A model generated the notes under the pieces. It did no database searches, was not told the origin of the DNA, and saw nothing but the letters and a program-made list of their open reading frames with translations. A stretch of 64,000 nt of DNA from an uncultured Gammaproteobacteria bacterium (GTDB taxonomy: Bacteria > Pseudomonadota > Gammaproteobacteria > JAADHQ01): assembly GCA_963807455.1 (NCBI GenBank), contig CAWECS010000016.1, forward strand, positions 146,682-210,681. The letters run 5' to 3'. Positions within the stretch are counted from its first letter, which is position 1, and each line of letters begins with the position of its first letter. Shown here in pieces: positions 13,428 through 49,168 of this stretch. The position numbers and the translations under genes were made by a program.

Positions 13428-14904
13428 ATGAGTGAAGAAATACTGATTAATGTGACCCCGAGAGAGACGCGTGTAGCGTTGGTAGAGAATGGTGTGTTAC
13501 AGGAGGTTTATATTGAACGGGAACGTAAACGCGGCATCGTCGGAAATATATATAAAGGCAAGGTTAGTCGAGTATTACCAGGGATGCAGGCCGCCTTTAT
13601 TGACATCGGTCTGGAACGTGCTGCCTTTTTACATGCCTCAGATATCAGCAGTGCAGTACTGATTGAAGCTGAAGAGTTGAATGCTGAAAAGCGTCAGAAT
13701 GAAATCGCAGACCTGGTCAGTGAAGGTCAGGATATACTGGTCCAGGTTATCAAGGATCCACTCGGTAGCAAGGGAGCCAGGCTCACCACACATATCACTG
13801 TGCCATCACGTTACCTGGTGCTATTACCCGGGGAAAATAATATTGGTATTTCCACTAAAATTGAAGACGAAGAAGAACGTAATCGCCTCAAAGATATCGT
13901 CACCTCCAAGAGTGAAAATCGAGAAGGCCATGGTTTTATAATCAGAACTGTTGCTGAAGGAATTGATGAGCAGGCGTTAATATCGGATCAAGAATTTTTA
14001 TCTAAACTATGGATCTCGATTAAGGAACAGATTGAAGTTGGCACAACCAGGATCCGTTGTCTATCAGGATTTGTCGCTGGCTATACGTACATTGCGTGAT
14101 CTTGTCGATGATCAAATAGAGAAAATCAGAGTTGATTCACGTGAAAGCTTTAACAAGCTGCAAGAATTCAGCCAACAGTTTGTTCCCCATATGACAGGGT
14201 GTCTGGAATATTATCCTGGTGAGCGACCCATTTTTGATTTGTATAATGTTGACGACGAATTGCAAAAGGCGCTAGACAGGAAAGTGCAACTTAAATCGGG
14301 AGGTTATCTGATTATTGATCAGACCGAGGCGATGACAACTATCGATGTCAACACCGGTGCCTATGTAGGTCATCGAAATCTGGAAGAAACTATATTTAAA
14401 ACCAACCTGGAAGCGGCGCAGGCTATCACTCGCCAGTTGAGATTACGTAATCTGGGTGGGATTATCATTATCGATTTTATTGATATGTCACTGGATGATC
14501 ACAAACGCCAGGTATTACGAGCATTAGAGAAAACTCTGGTTAAAGACCATGCCAAAAGTAATATTACCGAGGTTTCCAGTCTTGGGCTGGTAGAGATGAC
14601 GCGTAAAAGAACGCGCGAGAGTCTGGAGCATGTTTTGTGTGATGTATGTCCTACCTGCGATGGCAGGGGCTCGATAAAATCAGCAGAAACTGTTTGTTAT
14701 GAGGTTTTCAGGGAGATTATCCGTGAAGTAAGGCAATATGATGCCAAAAAGTTATTGGTACTGGCTTCGCAGGAGGTAGTCGACCTGTTACTGGATGAGG
14801 AAAGTGCAAGTCTCGCTGAGTTGGAGGCTTTTATTGAAGTTCCGATTAAATTTCAGGTGGAAGCCTTGTTTACACCTGAGCAATATGATGTTGTGTTAAT
14901 GTAG
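13428..14904 (+). pseudogene. rng: Ribonuclease G (RNase E/G family), interrupted by an apparent +1 frameshift near 14,035-14,060
   Basis: Two overlapping ORFs in different frames (13428-14099 and 14032-14904) together span a ~490-aa RNase G. The first has the S1 domain, the second the catalytic and Zn-link region (CDVCPTCDGRG). The switch point lies between ...KEQIEVG and VVYQDLSLAIRTL. Confidence 0.75.
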
Positions 14905-36567: not shown

Positions 36568-36753
36568 TTAAGTGCTCTTTACCCGGGTGGCTCCGCATCT
36601 TGTACAGCGAAAGCGGGTGACCAGACGGCCTTTTTTGACATCAAAGCCCATTTTTTTATCCTCGACCCATTTGTGGAAATTATGCTTGCACAGGGTTTTC
36701 CCCTTGTGCTTTTCACCGGGTTTGGGCTTTTTAAATGCTAAGATGTCGGCCAT
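36568..36753 (-). CDS. Small lysine-rich zinc-ribbon protein, hypothetical
   Basis: 61 aa with C...H..H...CxxC spacing. Two overlapping plus-strand ORFs in the same span are rejected as less likely. Not recognised. Confidence 0.35.
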   Translation of the reverse strand: MADILAFKKPKPGEKHKGKTLCKHNFHKWVEDKKMGFDVKKGRLVTRFRCTRCGATRVKST

Positions 36754-36897
36754 GCGCTATTATGGCGTTTCCGTAATCCCGGTACAAGTTTGCCGCTCGG
36801 ATTTGATGATGACACAGCCCCTGATCCAGCCTGCATTCAGGAATGTTTAAACAGTGGTATTAAGCCAATACTGATTTTAATTAAAAACTATAGCCCT

Positions 36898-37527
36898 ATG
36901 ACAAAAGACCGTATTGAAACCGGATCCCTTGGATGGACCCATGCCGCCTGGGACAATGATTATTACCCGGAAGATCTGCCAGAAGACTGGCGTCTTGATT
37001 ATTATAGTCATCATTTTCAGTTTGTATTAATGCAGACAGATGAATGGTTGCATGTCAGTCAGGGTGATATTCAGCAATGGCTTGAAGATGTTAACGAAAC
37101 TTTCACCTTTTTTCTGGCCATACGGCCCGAAGCAATCGACAGCGCAGCCATTGAGCAAATTGGTAATATCAAGGCAGGACTGGGAGATCGCTTGTGTGGC
37201 CTGGTTATCCTGCAAGTGGATGACAGTCTTCCTGAGTCAATCATTAAGTCATTGACGGAGTTGACGACAGTTTATCTGGACACAGATCAGTTCGCAGATT
37301 TACCTGCAGGTACAAAACCTTGTTGGCGCAATGAGCGTGAGGTGTCTGACTGTATTATCGGCTTTATGCGCCCGGAAGTAGCAAAAGATATGCGTGCCAT
37401 GCGTGCACAAATCGAGGTTTTCCTGCAGCAATGCAAGGCGAAACCGCTTTATCTGATCTACGAAGGTCAGGCGCCTGCAACTAAAGCCATGCAGGATGCG
37501 CAGGTAATTATACAAATGTTGGCCTAG
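36898..37527 (+). CDS. DUF72-family protein, hypothetical
   Basis: Start moved to the internal Met (MTKDRIETGSLGWTHAAW...). The N-terminal GxxGWxxxxW....YYP pattern and overall length resemble DUF72 (YecE-like). Assignment is from memory. Confidence 0.5.
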   Translation: MTKDRIETGSLGWTHAAWDNDYYPEDLPEDWRLDYYSHHFQFVLMQTDEWLHVSQGDIQQWLEDVNETFTFFLAIRPEAIDSAAIEQIGNIKAGLGDRLCGLVILQVDDSLPESIIKSLTELTTVYLDTDQFADLPAGTKPCWRNEREVSDCIIGFMRPEVAKDMRAMRAQIEVFLQQCKAKPLYLIYEGQAPATKAMQDAQVIIQMLA

Positions 37528-38885: not shown

Positions 38886-39030
38886 TTATCATTATAGGTT
38901 ATATATGCTTATAATGATAAGATTATTTATCATTGTATTTGCAACAACACCTTTTATAGCCTATTATGTATATAAATATAATCATTATAGGTTAATAACC
39001 CTTATTAAGGTAATTATAATTATCATTATG
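38886..39030. promoter_or_regulatory. Array of TTATCATTAT-type operator-like repeats upstream of, and overlapping the start codon of, the hipB-like gene
   Basis: Two half-sites form an inverted repeat: TTATCATTAT (38886-38895) and ATAATGATAA (38911-38920), 15 bp apart. Further copies are at 38927-38934 (TTATCATT), 38980-38989 (AATCATTAT) and 39019-39029 (TTATCATTATG, overlapping the ATG). A 14-of-15 identical extended copy, ATCATTATAGGTTA, occurs twice. The surrounding spacer is highly AT-rich. Confidence 0.45.
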
Positions 39031-39378
39031 AAATTTGAAGCAATGACAAATGAATCGATTGCCGCAGAAATCGGTCAGCGAATCGAGCAAATGCGTTTGG
39101 AGCAGAATCTGACACAACAGCAACTGGCTGATGAGATTGGCCTGTCGCGTGTGAGTTATCGGAAACTGGTCGGTGGTGCGGGTAAATTTGAAAATATTAT
39201 TGCCGTACTGCGTGCTTTAGGTCGACTGGATTTAGTTGAGCAATTCGTACCCGAGACCGTATTCAGCCCGATGGAGCAATTAAAACTCAAGGGTAAACAA
39301 CGCCAGCGTGCAACAGGAGCGCATGCGCAAAAAGGGGGAAGTCATAGCCGTCAACAAAAACCTGGTCTGGACTGGTAA
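39028..39378 (+). CDS. hipB: HTH XRE-family transcriptional regulator, HipB-like antitoxin
   Basis: Helix-turn-helix LTQQQLADEIGLSRVSYRKL. The stop overlaps the hipA start (TAATG). The ORF-track start at 38905 adds a low-complexity 41-aa leader translated from AT-rich DNA that I consider spurious. An alternative start is ATG 39043. Confidence 0.7.
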   Translation: MKFEAMTNESIAAEIGQRIEQMRLEQNLTQQQLADEIGLSRVSYRKLVGGAGKFENIIAVLRALGRLDLVEQFVPETVFSPMEQLKLKGKQRQRATGAHAQKGGSHSRQQKPGLDW

Positions 39379-40688
39379 TGCAAAACCTGGCAGAAGTGCG
39401 ACTATGGGGTGAATTGCTGGGCGCCTTGCTGTATGACCCCGTCACAAAAATCAGCACCTTTGAATATGCGCCAGCCTGGGTGAACCAGGGCGTGGAAATT
39501 GCCCCTCTGTGGATGCCACTGTCGAGCAGAAAATATCAATTCCCCGGTTTAAATCCTGAGACTTATAAGGGTTTGCCAGCCGTGTTCTCGGATGTGTTGC
39601 CCGATGATTTCGGTAATGCGGTTATTAATGCATGGTTGGCCAGGCAGGGAAGAGATGCTGATTCATTTACTTCACTGGAGCGTTTACTTTATATCGGCAA
39701 CCGTGGCATGGGCGCGATTGAGTTTGAACCGGCCATTTCGAATAATATCGCAAGTAGTGAAAAAATTGAGCTGGCCTCATTAGTTGAAATGGCACAGAGG
39801 ATTTTAGACCAGCGCGCCAATCTATCCAAAAAACTATTACCGGAAAAATCCAATAACGATGCGATGTCAGGATTATTCCAGGTCGGGACCTCAGCCGGAG
39901 GAGCACGTGCCAAAGCACTGGTCGCGGTGAACGCGGACAGAACTCAATTACGATCAGGTCAAGTAGATGCGCCAACAGGTTTTGAGCATTACTTGCTGAA
40001 ATTTGACGGTGTAGAAGAGCATAAAGTAAATAGCGAAGTTTTTGGCGACCCCAAGGGCTTTGGACGCATGGAATATGCTTATTATCTGATGGCGGTGGAT
40101 GCAGGGATTAACATGCCACCATCAGAGTTGTTAATAGAAGGTGAGAGAGCCCATTTTATGACAAAACGCTTTGATCGTGATGGCAATAATAAAATCCAAT
40201 ACGTGTCTTTATGCGCCATGGATCATGCTGATTACAAAAAACCAGGTGCTTATAGTTATGAGCAATTATTATCTGTGGCAAGACAATTAAGGCTGCCGAG
40301 GAATGATGCAATAGAGATTTATCGCCGTATGGTTTTTAACGTCGTCGCTAGAAATCATGACGATCATTCCAAGAATATCGGTTTCTTGTTGCCTGCTATG
40401 CAAAGCCAGTGGCGCTTATCTCCGGCGTTTGATCTGGCCTATAGTTATAAAAAAGGTTCCCCCTGGGTCAATTCACATCAAATGAGTTTGAATGGCAAAC
40501 GCGATGACTTTGTTCGTGATGATTTATTAGCCGTTGGTGCGCTCATTGGTAATTTCAGCAAAAAGTCCAGAGAAATTATTGATGAAGTCATCGCGGTAGT
40601 AGATAACTGGAATGGCTATGCGCAACAAGCTGGAGTGTTTGAGAGTCTTGCAGAAGTCATCAGGAAAAATCACAGACGATTGCTTTAA
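39378..40688 (+). CDS. hipA: HipA-family serine/threonine kinase toxin (type II TA)
   Basis: 436 aa. HipA_N coupling domain and a C-terminal kinase core with the catalytic-loop motif VARNHDDHSKNIGFLL (the HipA NxDDHxKN pattern). Translationally coupled to hipB. Confidence 0.85.
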   Translation: MQNLAEVRLWGELLGALLYDPVTKISTFEYAPAWVNQGVEIAPLWMPLSSRKYQFPGLNPETYKGLPAVFSDVLPDDFGNAVINAWLARQGRDADSFTSLERLLYIGNRGMGAIEFEPAISNNIASSEKIELASLVEMAQRILDQRANLSKKLLPEKSNNDAMSGLFQVGTSAGGARAKALVAVNADRTQLRSGQVDAPTGFEHYLLKFDGVEEHKVNSEVFGDPKGFGRMEYAYYLMAVDAGINMPPSELLIEGERAHFMTKRFDRDGNNKIQYVSLCAMDHADYKKPGAYSYEQLLSVARQLRLPRNDAIEIYRRMVFNVVARNHDDHSKNIGFLLPAMQSQWRLSPAFDLAYSYKKGSPWVNSHQMSLNGKRDDFVRDDLLAVGALIGNFSKKSREIIDEVIAVVDNWNGYAQQAGVFESLAEVIRKNHRRLL

Positions 40689-41005: not shown

Positions 41006-42700
41006 ATGAAACTTATTAATAACACTTCATTATTTGCATGGAAGCTAAAACCAGTTTTCCTCGCAATGAGCATCGCCCTGACGGGTTGTTACGAAACAAC
41101 CGAAAAAACAACTTACCTTGATCAAGGTTGGGATGATCAAAATCAGTACAGGGAAATTTCATATAACCTGTCGCAAGGATCCAATTTGATACCTTACGAT
41201 TGGTACCTGGCACTGGAAATACCTTATTTAGCAATACCACTTAACTCAAAAGAAGTGGCAGAAACCCTGCGTTATCTGTCGACCGACATCGCCACAGAGC
41301 GAAACCCTGACAAACTGCCTGTTGGTTTTGTGAAAAATATTGACGCAGATAACAAAGCATGGATCGGCCTCACCTGTGCTGCATGCCATACGAGTCAGAT
41401 CAACTATAAAGGAACAGGTGTCCGTATTGATGGTGGCCCGGCCATGGGGGATTTTATTACCCTGTTGAAGCTGGTGAAGAAAAGTATTGCAGATACTTTG
41501 GATAACGAAAACAAGTTTGAACGTTTCGCATCCAAACTCTATGGCCAGGATTGGTCAGCGCAAACGGAAACACTCAAGCTTGAAATGGAAACCATGAAGC
41601 AAAAGGTGTCGGGTATTATTGAGCGCAATGACAGCATAGTTGAGTCGGGCTATGGCCGCGTGGATGCATTTGGCTCCATTGGCAATGAAATTTTTGTCGA
41701 TGATCTTGGTATACCCAGTAACTTCAGTCAGGCTAATGCGCCCGCTGATTATCCTTTTCTTTGGGATACTCCGAACCTTGAACGGGTGCAATGGGCAGGT
41801 AATGTCGAAAATCCCTTTGGTCGTAATATTGGTGAAGTATATGGAGTCTTTGGTGAGGTTAACCTGACTGACCCCGCGCATCTTTTTACCAGTTCGGTCA
41901 AGTACAGGAATATCTTTCAACTGGAAGAAATGTTGCGTGTACTTAAATCGCCAAAATGGCCTGAATCTATTCTTAAAAAAATTAACAACAAAAAAGCCGG
42001 TCGTGGTGAAGTCATTTATAACACTGCGGATGCCTATGGTTACACCTGTGTCAGCTGCCACACTCTGCCCGATAGCAATGGTCAGTATCCATTGACCCCG
42101 GCCGAGGACAATCTGTTCAATAAACAATTTATTAAAACCTATAATATTCCGTTGGATGAGATTGGCACTGATCCCAATACCGCTGATGAGATATTTCAAT
42201 CACCATTAGTAGATGTTGGTCCAATACTGTCCAATATTTTTGGCCAGCAATTCTTGCCACGTACTTTTGCGCAAAGCGCCGTCGTAGGTCTTACGGTTAG
42301 AAAAGCATTTGAAGAAATACAGCCGCCACTGACTGACATTGAAAAGGCAGCCTATAGTGGATTTCGTATTTATGCGCCGGGCAAGGAACCTGAAGCTGAT
42401 TTTTCCGGTTATAAAGCGCGACCGTTAAATGGTATATGGGCGACTGCTCCTTACTTGCATAATGGTTCAGTAAGAACGCTCTCCATGTTGTTAACAGAAT
42501 CAGCTTTGCGAGAAAAGAGTTTCTGGAAAGGAACCCGCGAATTTGATCCAAAGAATGTTGGATTCAAATCAAAGAAGAGTGCGGCTGCACAATGGTTTGA
42601 TGCGACCCAGCCTGGTAATTTGAACAGTGGACATGACTACGGCACATCATTTAGCCAGCGTGAAAAATCAGACTTGATTGAGTTTCTGAAAACATTATAG
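41006..42700 (+). CDS. Di-heme c-type cytochrome lipoprotein (putative periplasmic peroxidase/oxidoreductase)
   Basis: 564 aa. Signal peptide with lipobox LTGC and two CxxCH heme-binding motifs (GLTCAACHTSQ, YTCVSCHTLPD) about 225 residues apart. This is larger than classical CCP/MauG. Family not assigned. Confidence 0.65.
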   Translation: MKLINNTSLFAWKLKPVFLAMSIALTGCYETTEKTTYLDQGWDDQNQYREISYNLSQGSNLIPYDWYLALEIPYLAIPLNSKEVAETLRYLSTDIATERNPDKLPVGFVKNIDADNKAWIGLTCAACHTSQINYKGTGVRIDGGPAMGDFITLLKLVKKSIADTLDNENKFERFASKLYGQDWSAQTETLKLEMETMKQKVSGIIERNDSIVESGYGRVDAFGSIGNEIFVDDLGIPSNFSQANAPADYPFLWDTPNLERVQWAGNVENPFGRNIGEVYGVFGEVNLTDPAHLFTSSVKYRNIFQLEEMLRVLKSPKWPESILKKINNKKAGRGEVIYNTADAYGYTCVSCHTLPDSNGQYPLTPAEDNLFNKQFIKTYNIPLDEIGTDPNTADEIFQSPLVDVGPILSNIFGQQFLPRTFAQSAVVGLTVRKAFEEIQPPLTDIEKAAYSGFRIYAPGKEPEADFSGYKARPLNGIWATAPYLHNGSVRTLSMLLTESALREKSFWKGTREFDPKNVGFKSKKSAAAQWFDATQPGNLNSGHDYGTSFSQREKSDLIEFLKTL

Positions 42701-42979: not shown

Positions 42980-45044
42980 TCACATCTTCTTCGGTACAAA
43001 GAAAAATTCTCCTAGTCCGCCACCGTGTTTGACTGGAGCATATCGTGGAATTTGCTCAATATTATATTGGGCTGCAGTATTCTGTACATTGTCCGTGATT
43101 TGTTGATAGAGACGATAACCTTCGATGATTGACTGGTTTTTGTCGAGAGCGTCCAGAAAGGCACGTGCGAATACTGAATGATCTGCCGCCCCCAGCATCC
43201 AGAACAGGCTTGATACCACCGGATGTCATGACGATTCTGGCTCGAGTCTTGGACATGACCTTTATCCATCTGGCACGATGCTGAACATCATTCACACCGA
43301 GGCTCATACGGGTTTGTGCTGTACTGCTCATGGTGCCGGAGTAACAGGAATCAGCTATCACCAGGATATGCTTTGATTTAATGACATTGAGCATGTCAGT
43401 GATATCCAGATTAGATATCCAGTTTGCTGTATTTTCATTTTCAGCATCAACTGGCAACCAGTAACCACGCTGATTTTGTTGGTTGATTTCTCCATGTCCT
43501 GCATAGTAGATCAGTAAATTATCATTACTGGTTAGTTTGGAACTCAATTCATTTAACGCTGTTAATATACTATAGCGATCAGCATTCAGGATTAACTTGG
43601 TTTTGAAACCGTATTTATTACGGAGTATAGATTCAGTTTGTTTGGCATCATTGACGGCTGTTTTCAATGCAGGAAAATGTTGATAACGATTATTGCCAAT
43701 AATCAGTGCATGGTAATTACCAAAGGGTATTGATTGTATATCCTCATGCTCTGAAGGCGTTGACATGATTGTTTTTGTCGCTGGTGTTAGCGTATTAGTG
43801 GCAGCTTCGATGGCAAAGGCCAGACGAGCAACCCGTCCGCCTTTATCCACGGCAACCATCTTTACTTTGGTGGTCTGATTGCTTGCGTTCAGTGCGAGCT
43901 CAAATTTACCAGTGCTATTGATTTTGTGTTTTTGCCCATTGACGGTAAAACCGAGTATGCCGGCGGGCGCAGTGACGCGTCCAACAATATTATAGCGTTG
44001 TTGGTTGACCGGTAATTTGATTGTTGGCAGGCCTCGGGTCAGGATCAAAGGGTGCTGCAGAATGTTAATAGATGGGCCAGCCAGTTTCGTCAGATCATTG
44101 CTGACATTGGCGCTGGCTAAAAGTATTTTTTCGCTCAGTTGACTCTGGTTTTTGTTGAAATCATTTTGTAAGTCAGAAATAACATTTTGTTGTTGTGCAA
44201 TATTAGTCTTCAGATTCTGAATTTCGCGCTCATATGATAGAGTTTTTTCGTCAGTCGTGGTTTCAATAGCGAGGTATTGCTGGTTTTTTACCTGTAATTG
44301 CTTAAGCCGTTTAAGCGTTAAAGCCAATTGTTTTTTTCTATGTTGCAGCTGCCCATCAGTGCGAGAGAGTTTTTTGCGCAGGATATTAGTCTGTTGCTTG
44401 CTTGTCGCCACTTCACGCTGTAGTTTTTTCACTTCCTCCTGAGTAGAAGCGGCAATCGCGATATCGATGGATGATGCAAATTTTAGATCATTGTTGGTCA
44501 GTCCCGAGGCTTTGCGGTACCAGTTGATGGCTTTAACCAGATCTTTTTCTACGCCAAGTCCCTTTTCATAAAGGTAACCGAGATTGATTTCTGCTTTGTC
44601 ATTTCCAGACGCAGCAGCTTTTTCATACCAGAGGCGCGCCAGTTCATAATCGGGCGTAATACCCAGTCCTTTTTCATATATTTCACCGACATTAACCTGG
44701 GCATCGGCATTACCCTGTTTGGCCATTTCGAGCCAGACTTTCAAAGAGGTGCGGTAATCGGCGCGATTATAGGCAGTATATTCACCACCCCGAATCTCGC
44801 AATTGATAGCGCTGGTTCTGAGAGGGCGCCTGGCTGTCAGATAGCTTAACTGACCGCCCAGTTGGCGTACGACACCAGGTAGCAGACAATCGACAATAAA
44901 TAGTTTGTCGATATCTTTACGCGCCACCTGGGCGTGTTGCAAAGATTCATCCTGGATTTTTGGGCTGGTCGTGCCGATCGATTGGCAACCTGACAAAAGA
45001 GTCATCATCAGTGCAGCAAGAAAATACAAATTCCGTTTTATCAT
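42980..45044 (-). pseudogene. Sel1-repeat lipoprotein with coiled-coil region and C-terminal caspase (peptidase C14/CHAT-like) domain, with an apparent frameshift in a G5/C5 homopolymer near 43,189-43,193
   Basis: Lipobox LLSGC. Sel1 repeats (AQVNVGEIYEKGLGITPDY..., AEINLGYLYEKGLGVEKD...), a roughly 150-aa Q/K-rich coiled coil and a caspase His/Cys dyad (YYAGHG ... ADSCYSGT). The conserved HetF-type tail (...SGGIKPVLDAGG | HSVFARAFLDAL...) continues in the overlapping ORF 42980-43219 in another frame. Confidence 0.7.
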
Positions 45045-45271: not shown

Positions 45272-46090
45272 ATGAAGATGAAAAAAAATCTTTTATCCCA
45301 TTTATTATATTGCCTGCCAGTTTTTTTTCTGGTCGCTTGTTCGCATATTTCACCCGCGCATTACCACAGGGAAGTTGAACGTCAAGGTCTGGAACGGCAT
45401 ATCATCCAGACAGGTATTTTCCCGCTGGTCTATTACCGCAGGCCCAATGAGAAAATGAGTGATACATTGCACGTCTATATCGGTGGCGATGGAGTTCCCT
45501 GGCAAAGCCATATTTTTAAGTCTGAAGATCCCGGGCCCTATCATCCACTGGTCTTGCAACTGATGCAGCAAGATAAACAACCCAGTATTTATTTGGGTCG
45601 TCCCTGTTATCAAGGTTTGGCGAGAGTGCCTCCTTGTCAACCCGAACACTGGACTTCGGCCAGATTTTCCACAGAAGTGGTGAATAGTATGTCCACTGCA
45701 TTGAAGCAACTGCTGCAACAATATCAATATAAAAAACTGGCACTATTCGGTTACAGTGGCGGAGGTGCCCTGGCTGTACTACTGGCGCATGAATTACCTC
45801 AGACTCAGCTGGTGGTAACTATTGCCGGCAATCTGGACACTGACGCATGGACTTCCTATCATTATTATTCTGCAATGACGGCATCGATGAATCCCGCAAA
45901 GCAAGATGCATTGCCCGCCACGGTCAGACAAATTCATCTCCAGGGTGACCGGGATATGAATATTCCTCCACGATTGTCAGCCAATTATATAAAGAAACAG
46001 AATGACGTCACCGTGCTAAGTTTTGCCGACGCCGACCATACCTGTTGTTGGCATTTATATTGGTCTGAGTTGCTATCTGATCTTGAATAA
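45272..46090 (+). CDS. Alpha/beta-hydrolase-fold lipoprotein, hypothetical esterase/lipase
   Basis: 272 aa. Lipobox LVAC. Nucleophile elbow GYSGGG and a C-terminal Asp/His (ADADHTC) consistent with a Ser-Asp-His triad. Confidence 0.55.
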   Translation: MKMKKNLLSHLLYCLPVFFLVACSHISPAHYHREVERQGLERHIIQTGIFPLVYYRRPNEKMSDTLHVYIGGDGVPWQSHIFKSEDPGPYHPLVLQLMQQDKQPSIYLGRPCYQGLARVPPCQPEHWTSARFSTEVVNSMSTALKQLLQQYQYKKLALFGYSGGGALAVLLAHELPQTQLVVTIAGNLDTDAWTSYHYYSAMTASMNPAKQDALPATVRQIHLQGDRDMNIPPRLSANYIKKQNDVTVLSFADADHTCCWHLYWSELLSDLE

Positions 46091-46258
46091 GGCTTATATA
46101 ATGAAAGAATAATGAAACAGGGGTGGTAATTATGATCAAATATCGTTAGAATGTATTTACCACTGGCGCACTAGCCAGACTGCCAAGGAATCTGTGTTGT
46201 ACAGGTATTCGGCAGAGACAATATTAATATACTGACTCGATACATGGAGGTATTCGTT

Positions 46259-47747
46259 ATGAAAAAGCATTATCTTGTACGCTGTAATTTCCCTTTTATT
46301 CAAATCATCTCTTTATCCCGGGCATGTTTGCATGTCAGCCTGGCAAGCATTTTTGTGTTCAGCCTGAGTATGATGGCTTCCACTGCGAGCCACGCGCTAA
46401 CGCCAACACAGCAAGCCGTGATGAATTATTTCACTAATCCCAGTCTCTGTAGGCCAGTCACCCTGGAAGAAGATGCAGAAGAACCCATCGACGAGAAAAA
46501 GAAAGGTGAGTTATCCGGCTTTGGCACATCAAACAAGATATTTAGATCCGAATTTCCTGATCCACTCGCAGTGACTGATGGCGCTTATGAATGCAGTAAT
46601 CTTAGAACGGCTGATGGTGAAATTCATTTTCAGGCAGGCATCGAACGACTGCTGAATAGCCCCGAGTCTCTTAACCTTGAAGAAGTACTGCTAGGATTGG
46701 CATTTGAGGAAGTGATTACCATGGGCACCTTGAATGTGGAAATAAACGGTGCACATATGGCTAATTTGAATGCACATGTCGATGATCTGCATCAAGGTAG
46801 TATTGGTATGAGACATCCATCGGTATCTGCCAAAGATTTATCCCAGAGCAAACAGACCGGTGGTGGTGCATCTTCAAGTGGCAGCGATAACAACAAAATC
46901 GGTTTCTTTTTTAATACCAGGGTTGATACGGGTGATAAGGATGTCTCTCCACAAGAGACGGGTTTTGACTTCGATGCCTACGGCATTACTGGCGGCATGG
47001 ATGTGCGCGTGAATAATAATCTGGTGGTCGGTTTTGCAGCGGGGTATGGTAATACACAGGCCGATTACACTTCATCTATCGGTAGTATGGAAATGGATGG
47101 ATACAGTCTGTCAGCTTTTGGCACGCTCTACAAGAAAGACAAATATTTTCTTGATGCCATCGTTAACTATACACGAAATGAATTTGAATCCAGCAGAACT
47201 TTTGTGACACCTAATAATATAACGCAAACAGCACTGGGTGAAACTGACGGTGACACGTTGACCATCGGCCTGGGTATGGGTTATGAGGAACATATCAAAG
47301 ACGTAACGTTTGGCCCATTTATACGCTTGAATTATACCAAGGTCGATATAGATGCTTTTTCTGAAACAGGTGCGGGCCTTGTCAGTTTACAGATTGATGA
47401 ACAACAATTGAAATCTTTTGAAGGTGTCGTCGGCTTCCAGGCAAGCAAGATTATTAGTCGACCATGGGGTGTATTGATTCCTCAGTTCAGATTGGAGCTT
47501 GTACATGAATTTAAAAATGAAAGTCGCATAATCAATGCTCGTTTCCAGGGCGCTGTCAATAATGGCATCACTACCAATATGTTGATCCCTACGGATATGA
47601 CCTGACCTTAATTACTTCAATCTGGCGCTGGCAACATCAGCACAGTTTAGCCATGGCCGCACTGCCTTTGTTCAGTATACTGGATTGTTGGGCCAACAAG
47701 ATGTGAGTGAGCACGCAATAGAGCTAGGCGTACGCTGGAATTATTAA
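46259..47747 (+). pseudogene. Small autotransporter (short passenger plus beta-barrel translocator domain), with an apparent 1-nt frameshift near 47,600
   Basis: Signal peptide, a roughly 200-aa passenger and a typical autotransporter beta-domain (..YSLSAFGTLY.., ..TIGLGMGYEE..). The ORF stops at 47605, but the canonical C-terminus (...YTGLLGQQDVSEHAIELGVRWNY*) is encoded in the +1 frame from 47601 to 47747. Confidence 0.65.
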
Positions 47748-47752
47748 TCTAC

Positions 47753-49168
47753 CTATTTGAGGTGCTCCAGTAATTTCAGGAGTGCCTCATGTCTAGGGCT
47801 GATACTCAAACCTTCCTCTACCAGGTTCAAGGCAGTCTGGTTGTTACCATTATCGATATATCCATTTGCCAGGCGTACGTAGACATCTGCAATTCTACTC
47901 AGACCAGACAACGCTTGAGGATTAGCAGGGTGGATTTCCAGGATCTGTTGATAGGCAGACAATGCATTGCTACCAGCAGGTTCAGTGTAACGCTGCACCA
48001 TCATGTGCGCATCCGCAATTTCCAGCAACGAAATTATTTTTTCCTGATCTGACGGGCTAAGTGTTTCAAAAGGAGTGGCGACGACGATATCAATACTCTG
48101 TTTATTGACATTCTGCACTAAGTAAAAAGTAAGCATTCCCAGTATGATCAGGGTACTGAAAATAGGCAAGGCCCAAAAACGAAAAGCTTCACCGGTAGAT
48201 CCAGGAATGAAATCATTTATAAATGCCTGGACACTGTCCGGGCGTTCTTCGCGTTTTGTGGACAGGCTTTTCGACAGTATTTTCCATTGTTTTCGTTTCA
48301 GTCCATCAATAGGCGTAGGCTGAATTCCCTGTTCGCTCGCCTGTGTGCAGGTCTTTCTATTAAATGGATGCTTACCCGTTAATAGTTCATAAGCTATGAT
48401 GGCGAGCGCGAAGACATCATCACGCGGTTCAGGTATTTCACCTTCCAGCATCTCACAACTGGCGTAACCAGGTGTTACTGCTCGCCGGGTGCCCTTGTTA
48501 AGAGACTCATGTACTTCGTGCATTTCATTCACCAGAAAAGCCCTGGCGATGCCGAAATCCAATACCTTGACTATGTTCTCATTGGTAATGAAAATATTGG
48601 CCGGTTTTAAGTCGCAATGGATGATATTCTTGCTGTGTGCGTAGATCAGTGCTTTGCCAACACTTTTAATGATGCTAAATGCTTCATTTCGCGGCATGAC
48701 AACGAGCTGGTCCTTCTTATAAATCTTATCGGATAACGCCTGACCCTTGAGATATTCCATGGTCATCATGAAAATATCACCGTCACGATCAAAGTCATGT
48801 ACGTTGACAATGTTTGGGTGGGAAAGCATCTGCGTTTTGCGTGTTTCCCGTTGCAGGTTAATAAAGTCTTTTTTAGGCGTTTTGCTGCCAGGTTTTAGCA
48901 GCTTGATAGCGACATAGGGGTCGGTATCCATGGCCTCAATCTTTCTCAGATCACGTGCCTTATAGACCACGCCCATGCCACCTTTAGCAATGATGGCATC
49001 GAGAATAAAACGGTCTTTCAGGGTCTTTTGTATAGGACGAGCTGAAGCGGGAGAGGACTTGGATGAAGCAGAAGCGTTGGAAGACGTTTGCCGGCGATGA
49101 TCATCTTTATCTTCAAGTAGATGAGTGACATCGTTGGATGCATCGTTTTTGTTATCCCCTGTTGACAT
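47753..49168 (-). CDS. Hanks-type serine/threonine protein kinase with one TM helix and a C-terminal TPR-like extracytoplasmic domain
   Basis: 471 aa. Kinase subdomains I (GKGGMGVVYKARD), VIb (HCDLKPANI) and VII (DFGIA). A hydrophobic segment (ALPIFSTLIILGMLTFYLV) is followed by a helical repeat tail. Convergent with the autotransporter, with 5 bp between the stops. Confidence 0.85.
   Translation of the reverse strand: MSTGDNKNDASNDVTHLLEDKDDHRRQTSSNASASSKSSPASARPIQKTLKDRFILDAIIAKGGMGVVYKARDLRKIEAMDTDPYVAIKLLKPGSKTPKKDFINLQRETRKTQMLSHPNIVNVHDFDRDGDIFMMTMEYLKGQALSDKIYKKDQLVVMPRNEAFSIIKSVGKALIYAHSKNIIHCDLKPANIFITNENIVKVLDFGIARAFLVNEMHEVHESLNKGTRRAVTPGYASCEMLEGEIPEPRDDVFALAIIAYELLTGKHPFNRKTCTQASEQGIQPTPIDGLKRKQWKILSKSLSTKREERPDSVQAFINDFIPGSTGEAFRFWALPIFSTLIILGMLTFYLVQNVNKQSIDIVVATPFETLSPSDQEKIISLLEIADAHMMVQRYTEPAGSNALSAYQQILEIHPANPQALSGLSRIADVYVRLANGYIDNGNNQTALNLVEEGLSISPRHEALLKLLEHLK

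Follow-up and report, generated by a model that had tools for sequence, protein, structure and literature searches.

In a 64,000-nt stretch of DNA from an uncultured Gammaproteobacteria bacterium (assembly GCA_963807455.1, contig CAWECS010000016.1, positions 146,682 to 210,681; hereafter the window), we analyzed a minus-strand gene encoding a Sel1-repeat lipoprotein with a C-terminal caspase domain, the reading frame of which is broken near its end. We conclude that the encoded protein is an envelope lipoprotein of peptidase family C14, likely a periplasmic Arg/Lys protease, and that its gene is interrupted by an unprogrammed extra base that is most likely a consensus or assembly error. We assign this reading a probability of about 0.65. 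The gene, located at 45044..42980 on the minus strand, is a real gene and an ordinary family member: the local orthologue of a widespread, uncharacterised Gammaproteobacterial envelope lipoprotein family that is named “caspase family protein” at NCBI.

The caspase lipoprotein gene is split between two reading frames

The open reading frame (ORF) 45044..43062 on the minus strand comprises 660 codons, and a second open frame, shifted by +1, ends at the stop codon 42982..42980. The upstream frame ends with ...TSGGIKPVLDAGGG and shows unconserved sequence after it, and the +1 frame reads HSVFARAFLDALDKNQ...GEFFFVPKKM*. Deletion of one base restores the frame, and we scanned the resulting 687-aa product. 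A search of 5.8 billion proteins with this corrected sequence returned 2,544 relatives at E≤0.001. Two of them (P0002 and P0003) show 77% identity to the corrected protein across 100% of its length, and the intact orthologues are 681–690 aa long and 60–77% identical to it. Where the orthologues carry a name, it is “caspase family protein,” and most of them derive from uncultured Gammaproteobacteria, such as Candidatus Thiodiazotropha. The public assembly encodes the shortened 660-aa product (P0001).

In the present assembly, the caspase domain is therefore not contained in a single frame, its last 66 residues being found in the +1 frame. This out-of-frame tail is 88–91% identical to P0002 and P0003, compared with 85–86% for the in-frame part of the caspase domain. 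In the structure model described below, it holds the helices 624–635 and 642–658 and the strand 667–671. As assembled, the product is without these three elements of the fold and, judging from the model, should therefore be inactive.

Domain architecture of the corrected protein

The N-terminal signal peptide (MIKRNLYFLAALMMTLLSGC) shows all features of a substrate of signal peptidase II: a positively charged n-region, a hydrophobic h-region, and a lipobox of the type [LVI][ASTVI][GAS]C, here L17-S18-G19-C20 followed by Gln at position +2. Cys20 is invariant in two alignments of the family comprising 15 and 52 sequences, respectively. A strict pattern search detected a lipobox-like motif in 97 of the 120 top homologues. 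Inspection of a further 15 N-termini revealed either a Cys behind a hydrophobic stretch or long N-terminal extensions.

The best-conserved stretch of the family in these alignments, above even the catalytic domain, is an N-terminal module of about residues 40–100. No Pfam family matched this module in a scan of the corrected protein. A fragment model of residues 21–195, built with 79 sequences, shows it as a small β-rich domain with block-mean predicted local distance difference test (pLDDT) values of 72–90; the same domain stays below 50 in the full-length AlphaFold2 model. The module also carries a conserved basic stretch, RRPxR. One might speculate that this stretch is cut by an Arg-specific protease or serves such an enzyme as a pseudo-substrate.

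Two Sel1 repeats (PF08238) follow, and Sel1-repeat proteins of solved structure in the PDB match them down to 3.9e-60. The subsequent helical region, a stalk of ∼110 residues, gave only weak matches to coiled-coil-type hidden Markov models (HMMs). Within the Ig-like β-sandwich that precedes the protease domain, a Glucodextran_B match at residues 340–407 remained below threshold (22.3 bits, cutoff 27). The AlphaFold2 model arranges these elements in the order signal helix, Sel1 helices (94–180), two long helices (202–259 and 265–310), β-sandwich (325–414), and caspase domain (443–671). Block-mean pLDDT values of the caspase domain are mostly 73–95, with dips to 54–64 near residues 571–590 and 611–620. 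An earlier note on this DNA had described the gene from its sequence. Its coordinates and motifs (lipobox, YYAGHG, DSCYSG, Sel1, helical region) are correct; the order Sel1, coiled coil, and C14 caspase domain that it proposed is borne out by Pfam and the model, and the lipoprotein signal that it predicted is present.

The protease domain belongs to family C14

On the frame-corrected protein, PF00656 reaches 82.1 bits (cutoff 21.4; E 6.3e-23), covering residues 445–668 and positions 3–223 of the 233-position profile. The earlier note had allowed for an HMM analysis that would find this domain not to be C14-like; the score demonstrates that it is. The His/Cys dyad in YYAGHG (His517, codon 43496..43494) and DSCYSG (Cys567, codon 43346..43344) is intact, as had been claimed, and invariant in both alignments. 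The same holds true for Asp466 (43649..43647) and Asp565 (43352..43350), which are predicted to form the S1 pocket. A Foldseek comparison places the model in the caspase/haemoglobinase fold, with MALT1, the plant and yeast metacaspases AtMC9, Yca1, and AtMC4, GSU0716 of Geobacter, and caspase-6 as top matches. The alignment with MALT1 pairs ALIIGNNRY...AVND466 with ALLIGNMNY...PLVD and YYAGHG with YYAGHG. In metacaspases, two Asp residues accommodate basic P1 residues (PMC6426788). Because Asp466 and Asp565 (D-x-C) sit at the positions of these residues, and likewise agree with the acidic S1 pocket of paracaspases, we predict a specificity for Arg or Lys.

The earlier note had assigned the domain to the CHAT family (PF12770; HetF-type) rather than to C14 proper. 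CHAT proteins share the clan-CD caspase-like fold and are often joined to TPR-type repeats, so that the TPR-like repeats N-terminal to the protease domain recall the CHAT arrangement, but this is a resemblance only. A Pfam scan of the corrected protein gave no CHAT match at E≤0.1, and the C14 profile matches the whole domain, including the C-terminal motif that had been taken for a HetF-type tail. Moreover, the closest matches in sequence and fold are MALT1 and the metacaspases. We therefore rejected membership in the CHAT family, which we consider highly improbable. At NCBIfam, the model caspase_w_EACC1 scored below threshold (69.7 bits, cutoff 140) and was not used for classification.

Position of the extra base

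Between the codons of Asp616 (GAT) and His622 (CAT), the window contains 16 nt, GCTGGGGGCGGCAGAT, where the two nearest orthologues have the 15 nt GCC GGA GGC GGT GGT and GCC GGA GGT AAT AAT. The interval includes five consecutive G of the coding strand (G5, 43193..43189); the only other notable homopolymer in the gene is A7 at 44337..44331. According to the earlier note, the frame breaks exactly at G5. A genuine +1 break with a conserved tail in the other frame is indeed present, but its location can be narrowed down only to 43196..43181.

The spacer between the two codons is five residues long in 114 of 115 homologues. Position 2 is Gly in 113 of them, position 3 is Gly or Ser in 103, and position 4 is Gly or Asn in 110. 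The spacer AGGGD occurs three times, whereas AGAAD, which would result from shortening G5 to G4, is found in none of the 115 homologues with the motif. We deleted each single base in turn and scored the products against an HMM profile of 51 homologues. Deletions within CAGAT (43185..43181) scored highest (1034.3–1035.6 bits) and yield AGGG[D/N/S/R]H, compared with 1031.3 bits and AGAADH for removal of a G from the G5 run. Judging from sequence, the extra base appears more likely to lie in CAGAT than in the homopolymer, although a margin of ∼4 bits is not decisive.

The earlier note had also suggested comparing the G-tract between orthologues. The nearest orthologues do not contain a G-run at this site (GGA GGC GGT and GGA GGT AAT). 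At 60 distinct homologous sites in other loci, in-frame G-runs of 2–6 occur as a by-product of Gly codons, none of them longer than six. The string GGGGGCGGC of the window is itself found in frame in the intact homologue L045.

Lesions of the same type in two further genes of the window

The window contains three frameshifts in total. All are single-base +1 insertions followed by open, conserved downstream frames, and all are at non-homopolymer sites, which for the caspase gene depends on CAGAT being the more likely position. The gene rng, encoding RNase G, is split into the pieces 13428..14099 (S1 domain and positions 1–78 of the RNase_E_G profile) and 14032..14904 (positions 81–270). A relative (L098:2539-4014) carries an intact rng of 491 aa at 84% nucleotide identity, and the pairwise alignment shows one extra base. 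In the autotransporter gene, the upstream frame stops at ...LIPTDMT* and the last 48 conserved residues, ending with ...GVRWNY*, are encoded in the +1 frame; the Pfam Autotransporter match (4.7e-52) covers only positions 3–223 of 255. The site reads GAT ATGA CCT where relatives have GAT CGG CCG, and removal of the T restores PTDRPDLNYF.

Among the ∼45 other ORFs, we found no split or truncated Pfam domain matches, and a codon-usage scan revealed no further out-of-frame tails. A DUF72-like ORF at 36790-37527 (plus strand) shows weak, partial profile coverage (positions 1–93 of 217, E 4e-4), and an open frame at 36572-36850 overlaps its upstream side. This ORF, too, may represent a gene that is degraded or mis-framed.

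Cause of the frame break

Since the three insertions are isolated and each is followed by an undecayed, conserved downstream frame, we consider them to be consensus errors or very recent mutations. For the caspase gene, a consensus or assembly error is the most likely cause and, failing that, a very recent inactivating mutation. The earlier note had named a homopolymer sequencing error as one of two options: sequencing error still is the leading explanation, but not specifically an error in a homopolymer. Several points weigh against our reading. In the assembled sequence alone, an error and a recent genuine mutation look alike. One conserved four-gene cluster (see below) contains two of the three breaks, which would also fit a real co-inactivation. 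A hand calculation that takes one break as given by ascertainment yields a probability of ∼0.18 for the cluster to be hit by one or both of the remaining breaks, a value that is neither significant nor negligible. The profile favors CAGAT over the G-run by a modest margin (∼4 bits), and homopolymers are by nature more prone to indels. Finally, the full-length AlphaFold2 model is of moderate confidence (mean pLDDT 72), and the proteolytic activity, the preference at P1, the lipid anchor, the location in the outer membrane, and the functional link to the neighbouring genes are properties that we infer.

The strongest competitor is a true, very recent pseudogenisation, in which the caspase gene and the neighbouring autotransporter gene have just been inactivated and the envelope module is being lost. 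It draws on the two lesions that strike genes of one conserved cluster and on the shortened 660-aa product encoded by the public assembly. On the other hand, the same type of lesion is present in rng, an unrelated housekeeping gene, and all three lesions are insertions. Each broken gene carries one lesion only, and its downstream frame is open throughout and matches the rest of the gene in conservation. Single, fresh lesions are the pattern of random consensus errors, whereas a genome that accumulates pseudogenes normally shows lesions of mixed age. Overall, we consider pseudogenisation possible but rather unlikely.

Much less probable is the slipped-strand phase variation proposed in the earlier note, by which G5 would gain or lose a G and switch a surface protease ON or OFF. 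Such a mechanism is known from the poly-G/C contingency loci of Neisseria, Campylobacter, and Haemophilus, and the caspase gene resembles them in having a coding G-run in an envelope-protein gene near a frame break, within the very 16 nt to which the extra base is confined. A short C5/C6 polymorphism between strains, a rare case recorded once in Neisseria (PMC5084427), also counts in its favor. However, the working definition of G/C contingency tracts in two sources is at least seven repeats (PMC4965091, PMC5084427), and G5 is shorter than this usual length. The run is neither conserved nor extended in orthologues: the nearest ones lack it, and none of the 60 homologous sites exceeds six. A conserved, length-polymorphic tract with ON and OFF alleles was thus not found. 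In addition, the break is better placed outside the run, the G5-to-G4 change yields the AGAADH variant that no homologue shares and that scores 4 bits worse than the CAGAT repair, and the other two frameshifts of the window are not at repeats. The least probable explanation, and in our view a negligible one, is a programmed +1 ribosomal frameshift or transcriptional slippage that would yield the full-length protein from the shifted gene. The intact, conserved downstream frame would agree with it, but programmed frameshifting is not supported because no orthologue examined shares the shift: nine orthologues of 681–690 aa (P0002–P0010, 61–77% identity) and the 114 homologues with the five-residue spacer read through in a single frame. 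Furthermore, the site shows no conserved slippery or stimulatory element. An unprogrammed base, introduced most likely by consensus or assembly error, therefore remains our preferred explanation.

Conserved neighbourhood of the caspase lipoprotein gene

The caspase gene is located between plus-strand genes, divergent from a gene for a hydrolase lipoprotein and convergent with a gene for a RoxA-like cytochrome. The autotransporter gene, two genes away, encodes a short passenger and a β-barrel. The Ser/Thr kinase encoded next to it has one transmembrane helix at about residues 331–352 and an extracytoplasmic TPR tail, a topology that is the same across lineages. The coordinates of all features are listed in Table 1.

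Table 1. Features of the caspase lipoprotein gene, its neighbours, and the other split gene of the window
Feature	Position	Strand	Details
Whole caspase lipoprotein gene as it should read	42980..45044	-	687 codons + stop + one extra base
Type II lipoprotein signal peptide, residues 1-20	44985..45044	-	n-region K3/R4, hydrophobic core, LSGC
Conserved N-terminal module, residues about 40-100	44745..44927	-	invariant Cys53/Cys82; CLLP...R-P...C-IRGG-Y
Two Sel1 repeats, residues 113-184	44493..44708	-	Pfam Sel1 1.1e-22, 80 bits vs cutoff 30.7
Long helical (coiled-coil) region, residues about 198-312	44109..44453	-	AlphaFold2 helices 202-259 and 265-310
Ig-like β-sandwich, residues about 323-415	43800..44078	-	all-β segment 325-414 in AlphaFold2 model
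Peptidase_C14 domain, upstream-frame part, residues 443-620	43185..43718	-	PF00656
Interval holding the single extra base	43181..43196	-	16 nt where orthologues have 15
Caspase domain, C-terminal 66 codons + stop, out of frame (+1)	42980..43180	-	translation HSVFARAFLDAL...GEFFFVPKKM*
Hydrolase lipoprotein, intact	45272..46090	+	272 aa, lipobox LVAC, α/β-hydrolase GYSGG nucleophile elbow
Autotransporter, split	46244..47747	+	extra base in ATGA (47597..47600); a single Arg codon in relatives
Receptor-type Ser/Thr kinase, intact	47753..49168	-	kinase domain 57-311 (HCDLKPAN, DFG)
RNase G (rng), split	13428-14904	+	single extra base at about 14034, ATT[G]AAG, no homopolymer

The same partner genes flank orthologues of 77%, 66%, 48%, 46%, and 44% identity, with a rearranged gene order in the last two. 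The hydrolase lipoprotein gene adjoins the caspase gene in the loci L008, L011, L013, L015, L016, and L017; in L014, the hydrolase, autotransporter, and kinase genes do not flank the caspase orthologue. We also analyzed a metagenome set of 80 loci at 33–66% identity, 32 of which have at least 3 kb on both flanks. Of these 32 loci, 30 harbor at least one and 25 at least two partner genes within 4 kb. Per flank, the autotransporter gene is found within 2 kb in 34%, the kinase gene in 23%, and the hydrolase gene in 17% of the cases, compared with 0–2% at a distance of 6–10 kb. The groups recovered by an unbiased clustering of the ORFs of 87 loci were the autotransporter (55 loci), the kinase (36), the hydrolase (30), and, in addition, a PP2C phosphatase (11). 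A fifth cluster from this analysis, comprising 33 loci, was discarded, as it consists of antisense shadow ORFs inside the caspase gene.

A limited literature search returned no description of this four-gene neighbourhood. In PADLOC-DB v2, we found no specific defence-system match: the hits are generic only, namely PD-T4-6 and mad6 for the kinase domain and an incomplete match to “caspase,” and the hydrolase and the autotransporter have none.

The RoxA-like cytochrome gene at 41006-42700 (plus strand) is not a conserved feature of this position among relatives. It encodes a 564-aa lipoprotein that has the lipobox LTGC, a RoxA-like cytochrome c domain, and two CxxCH haem motifs. A pair of genes for a HipB-like helix-turn-helix protein and a HipA toxin kinase is located at 38905-40688 (plus strand); a HipBA pair also adjoins the caspase orthologue of L011 (8113-9770). 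The gene content of the window is that of ordinary chromosomal housekeeping and includes leuS-lptE-holA, yhdP, tldD/pmbA, rpoN-lptCAB-kdsCD, PTS-Ntr genes, Ni-SOD, and a DsrE-like gene. Rfam and tRNA scans of positions 1-64000 detected neither tRNA genes nor an Rfam family that reached the gathering score.

Comparison with known systems

The closest described group is that of the prokaryotic metacaspases, or orthocaspases (MEROPS C14, PF00656). The caspase lipoprotein shares with them the C14 match, the His-Cys dyad in YxGHG and DSCxSG contexts, and the two conserved Asp residues at the positions for Arg/Lys specificity (PMC6426788). Sel1 fusions and N-terminal export signals have already been catalogued for metacaspases (PMC3501461, PMC4933709). 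In a 2012 survey of 671 prokaryotic metacaspases, Sel1, present in 6% of the sequences, ranked as one of the four most frequent partner domains; 46 proteins had a single N-terminal helix, probably a signal peptide, and other extracellular architectures were also noted (PMC3501461). A “Sel1 x 3 / metacaspase” architecture is listed in a Baltic Sea survey (PMC4933709). Together with the more than 2,500 relatives, these reports contradict the view of the earlier note that export is unusual for caspase-like effectors. What differs is the combination of N-terminal β-domain, Sel1 repeats, stalk, Ig-like domain, and C14 domain in one lipoprotein, an architecture that has no characterised member, and the broken frame of the present copy.

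Among solved structures, the paracaspase MALT1 is the best match (PDB 3V4O, 3UO8, 7PAW, among others; sequence 3e-8, Foldseek 1.6e-10). Both proteins share the motifs ALxIGNxxY...LK..xxD and YYAGHG and have an Ig-like domain beside the protease domain. MALT1 has an acidic S1 pocket for Arg. It is, however, a eukaryotic signalling scaffold that resides in the cytosol and carries a death domain, whereas the caspase lipoprotein is bacterial and exported, and the two are only 17–19% identical. Moreover, Ig3 of MALT1 lies after the caspase domain, while the Ig-like domain of the caspase lipoprotein precedes the protease.

In NlpI-Prc of E. coli, a TPR lipoprotein adaptor of the outer membrane positions a periplasmic protease on its substrates. 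This system serves as a working analogy from general knowledge, as it likewise combines lipid-anchored TPR-like repeats with a periplasmic protease. The differences are that the caspase lipoprotein unites adaptor and protease in one polypeptide and contains a clan-CD cysteine peptidase instead of a serine protease. Homology between the two systems is confined to the repeat class.

A proposed role in the envelope and its implications

Based on these observations, we propose the following model. Lipidation would tether the caspase lipoprotein to a membrane, and Gln at position +2 suggests the outer membrane as the predicted location under the E. coli sorting rule. There, the protein may act in the periplasm as a cysteine protease with Arg or Lys at P1, an activity and specificity predicted from its sequence. 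By analogy to NlpI-Prc, the Sel1, stalk, and Ig-like parts probably recruit substrates or partners. The protein probably works together with the co-conserved autotransporter, the single-pass receptor Ser/Thr kinase, and the GxSGG hydrolase lipoprotein.

At somewhat under even odds, we put forward that the caspase lipoprotein is the signature of an undescribed, widespread envelope module, comprising the autotransporter, the receptor kinase (in some loci with PP2C), and the hydrolase, in which periplasmic proteolysis at Arg/Lys is coupled to phospho-signalling across the membrane or to autotransporter processing. The co-occurrence of these genes is observed; we infer their coupling, and the module is called undescribed on the basis of the limited literature search.

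The picture of a phase-variable, unusually exported CHAT protease does not hold: the copy analyzed here is a common lipoprotein, and its break is probably an artefact. Single-base insertions seem to occur about once every 20 kb in this assembly and will give rise to false pseudogenes in other places. The conserved envelope neighbourhood may be the only part that merits follow-up. Bacterial caspase homologues are functionally obscure, and this family, together with its neighbourhood, provides a testable setting for a role in the envelope other than cell death.

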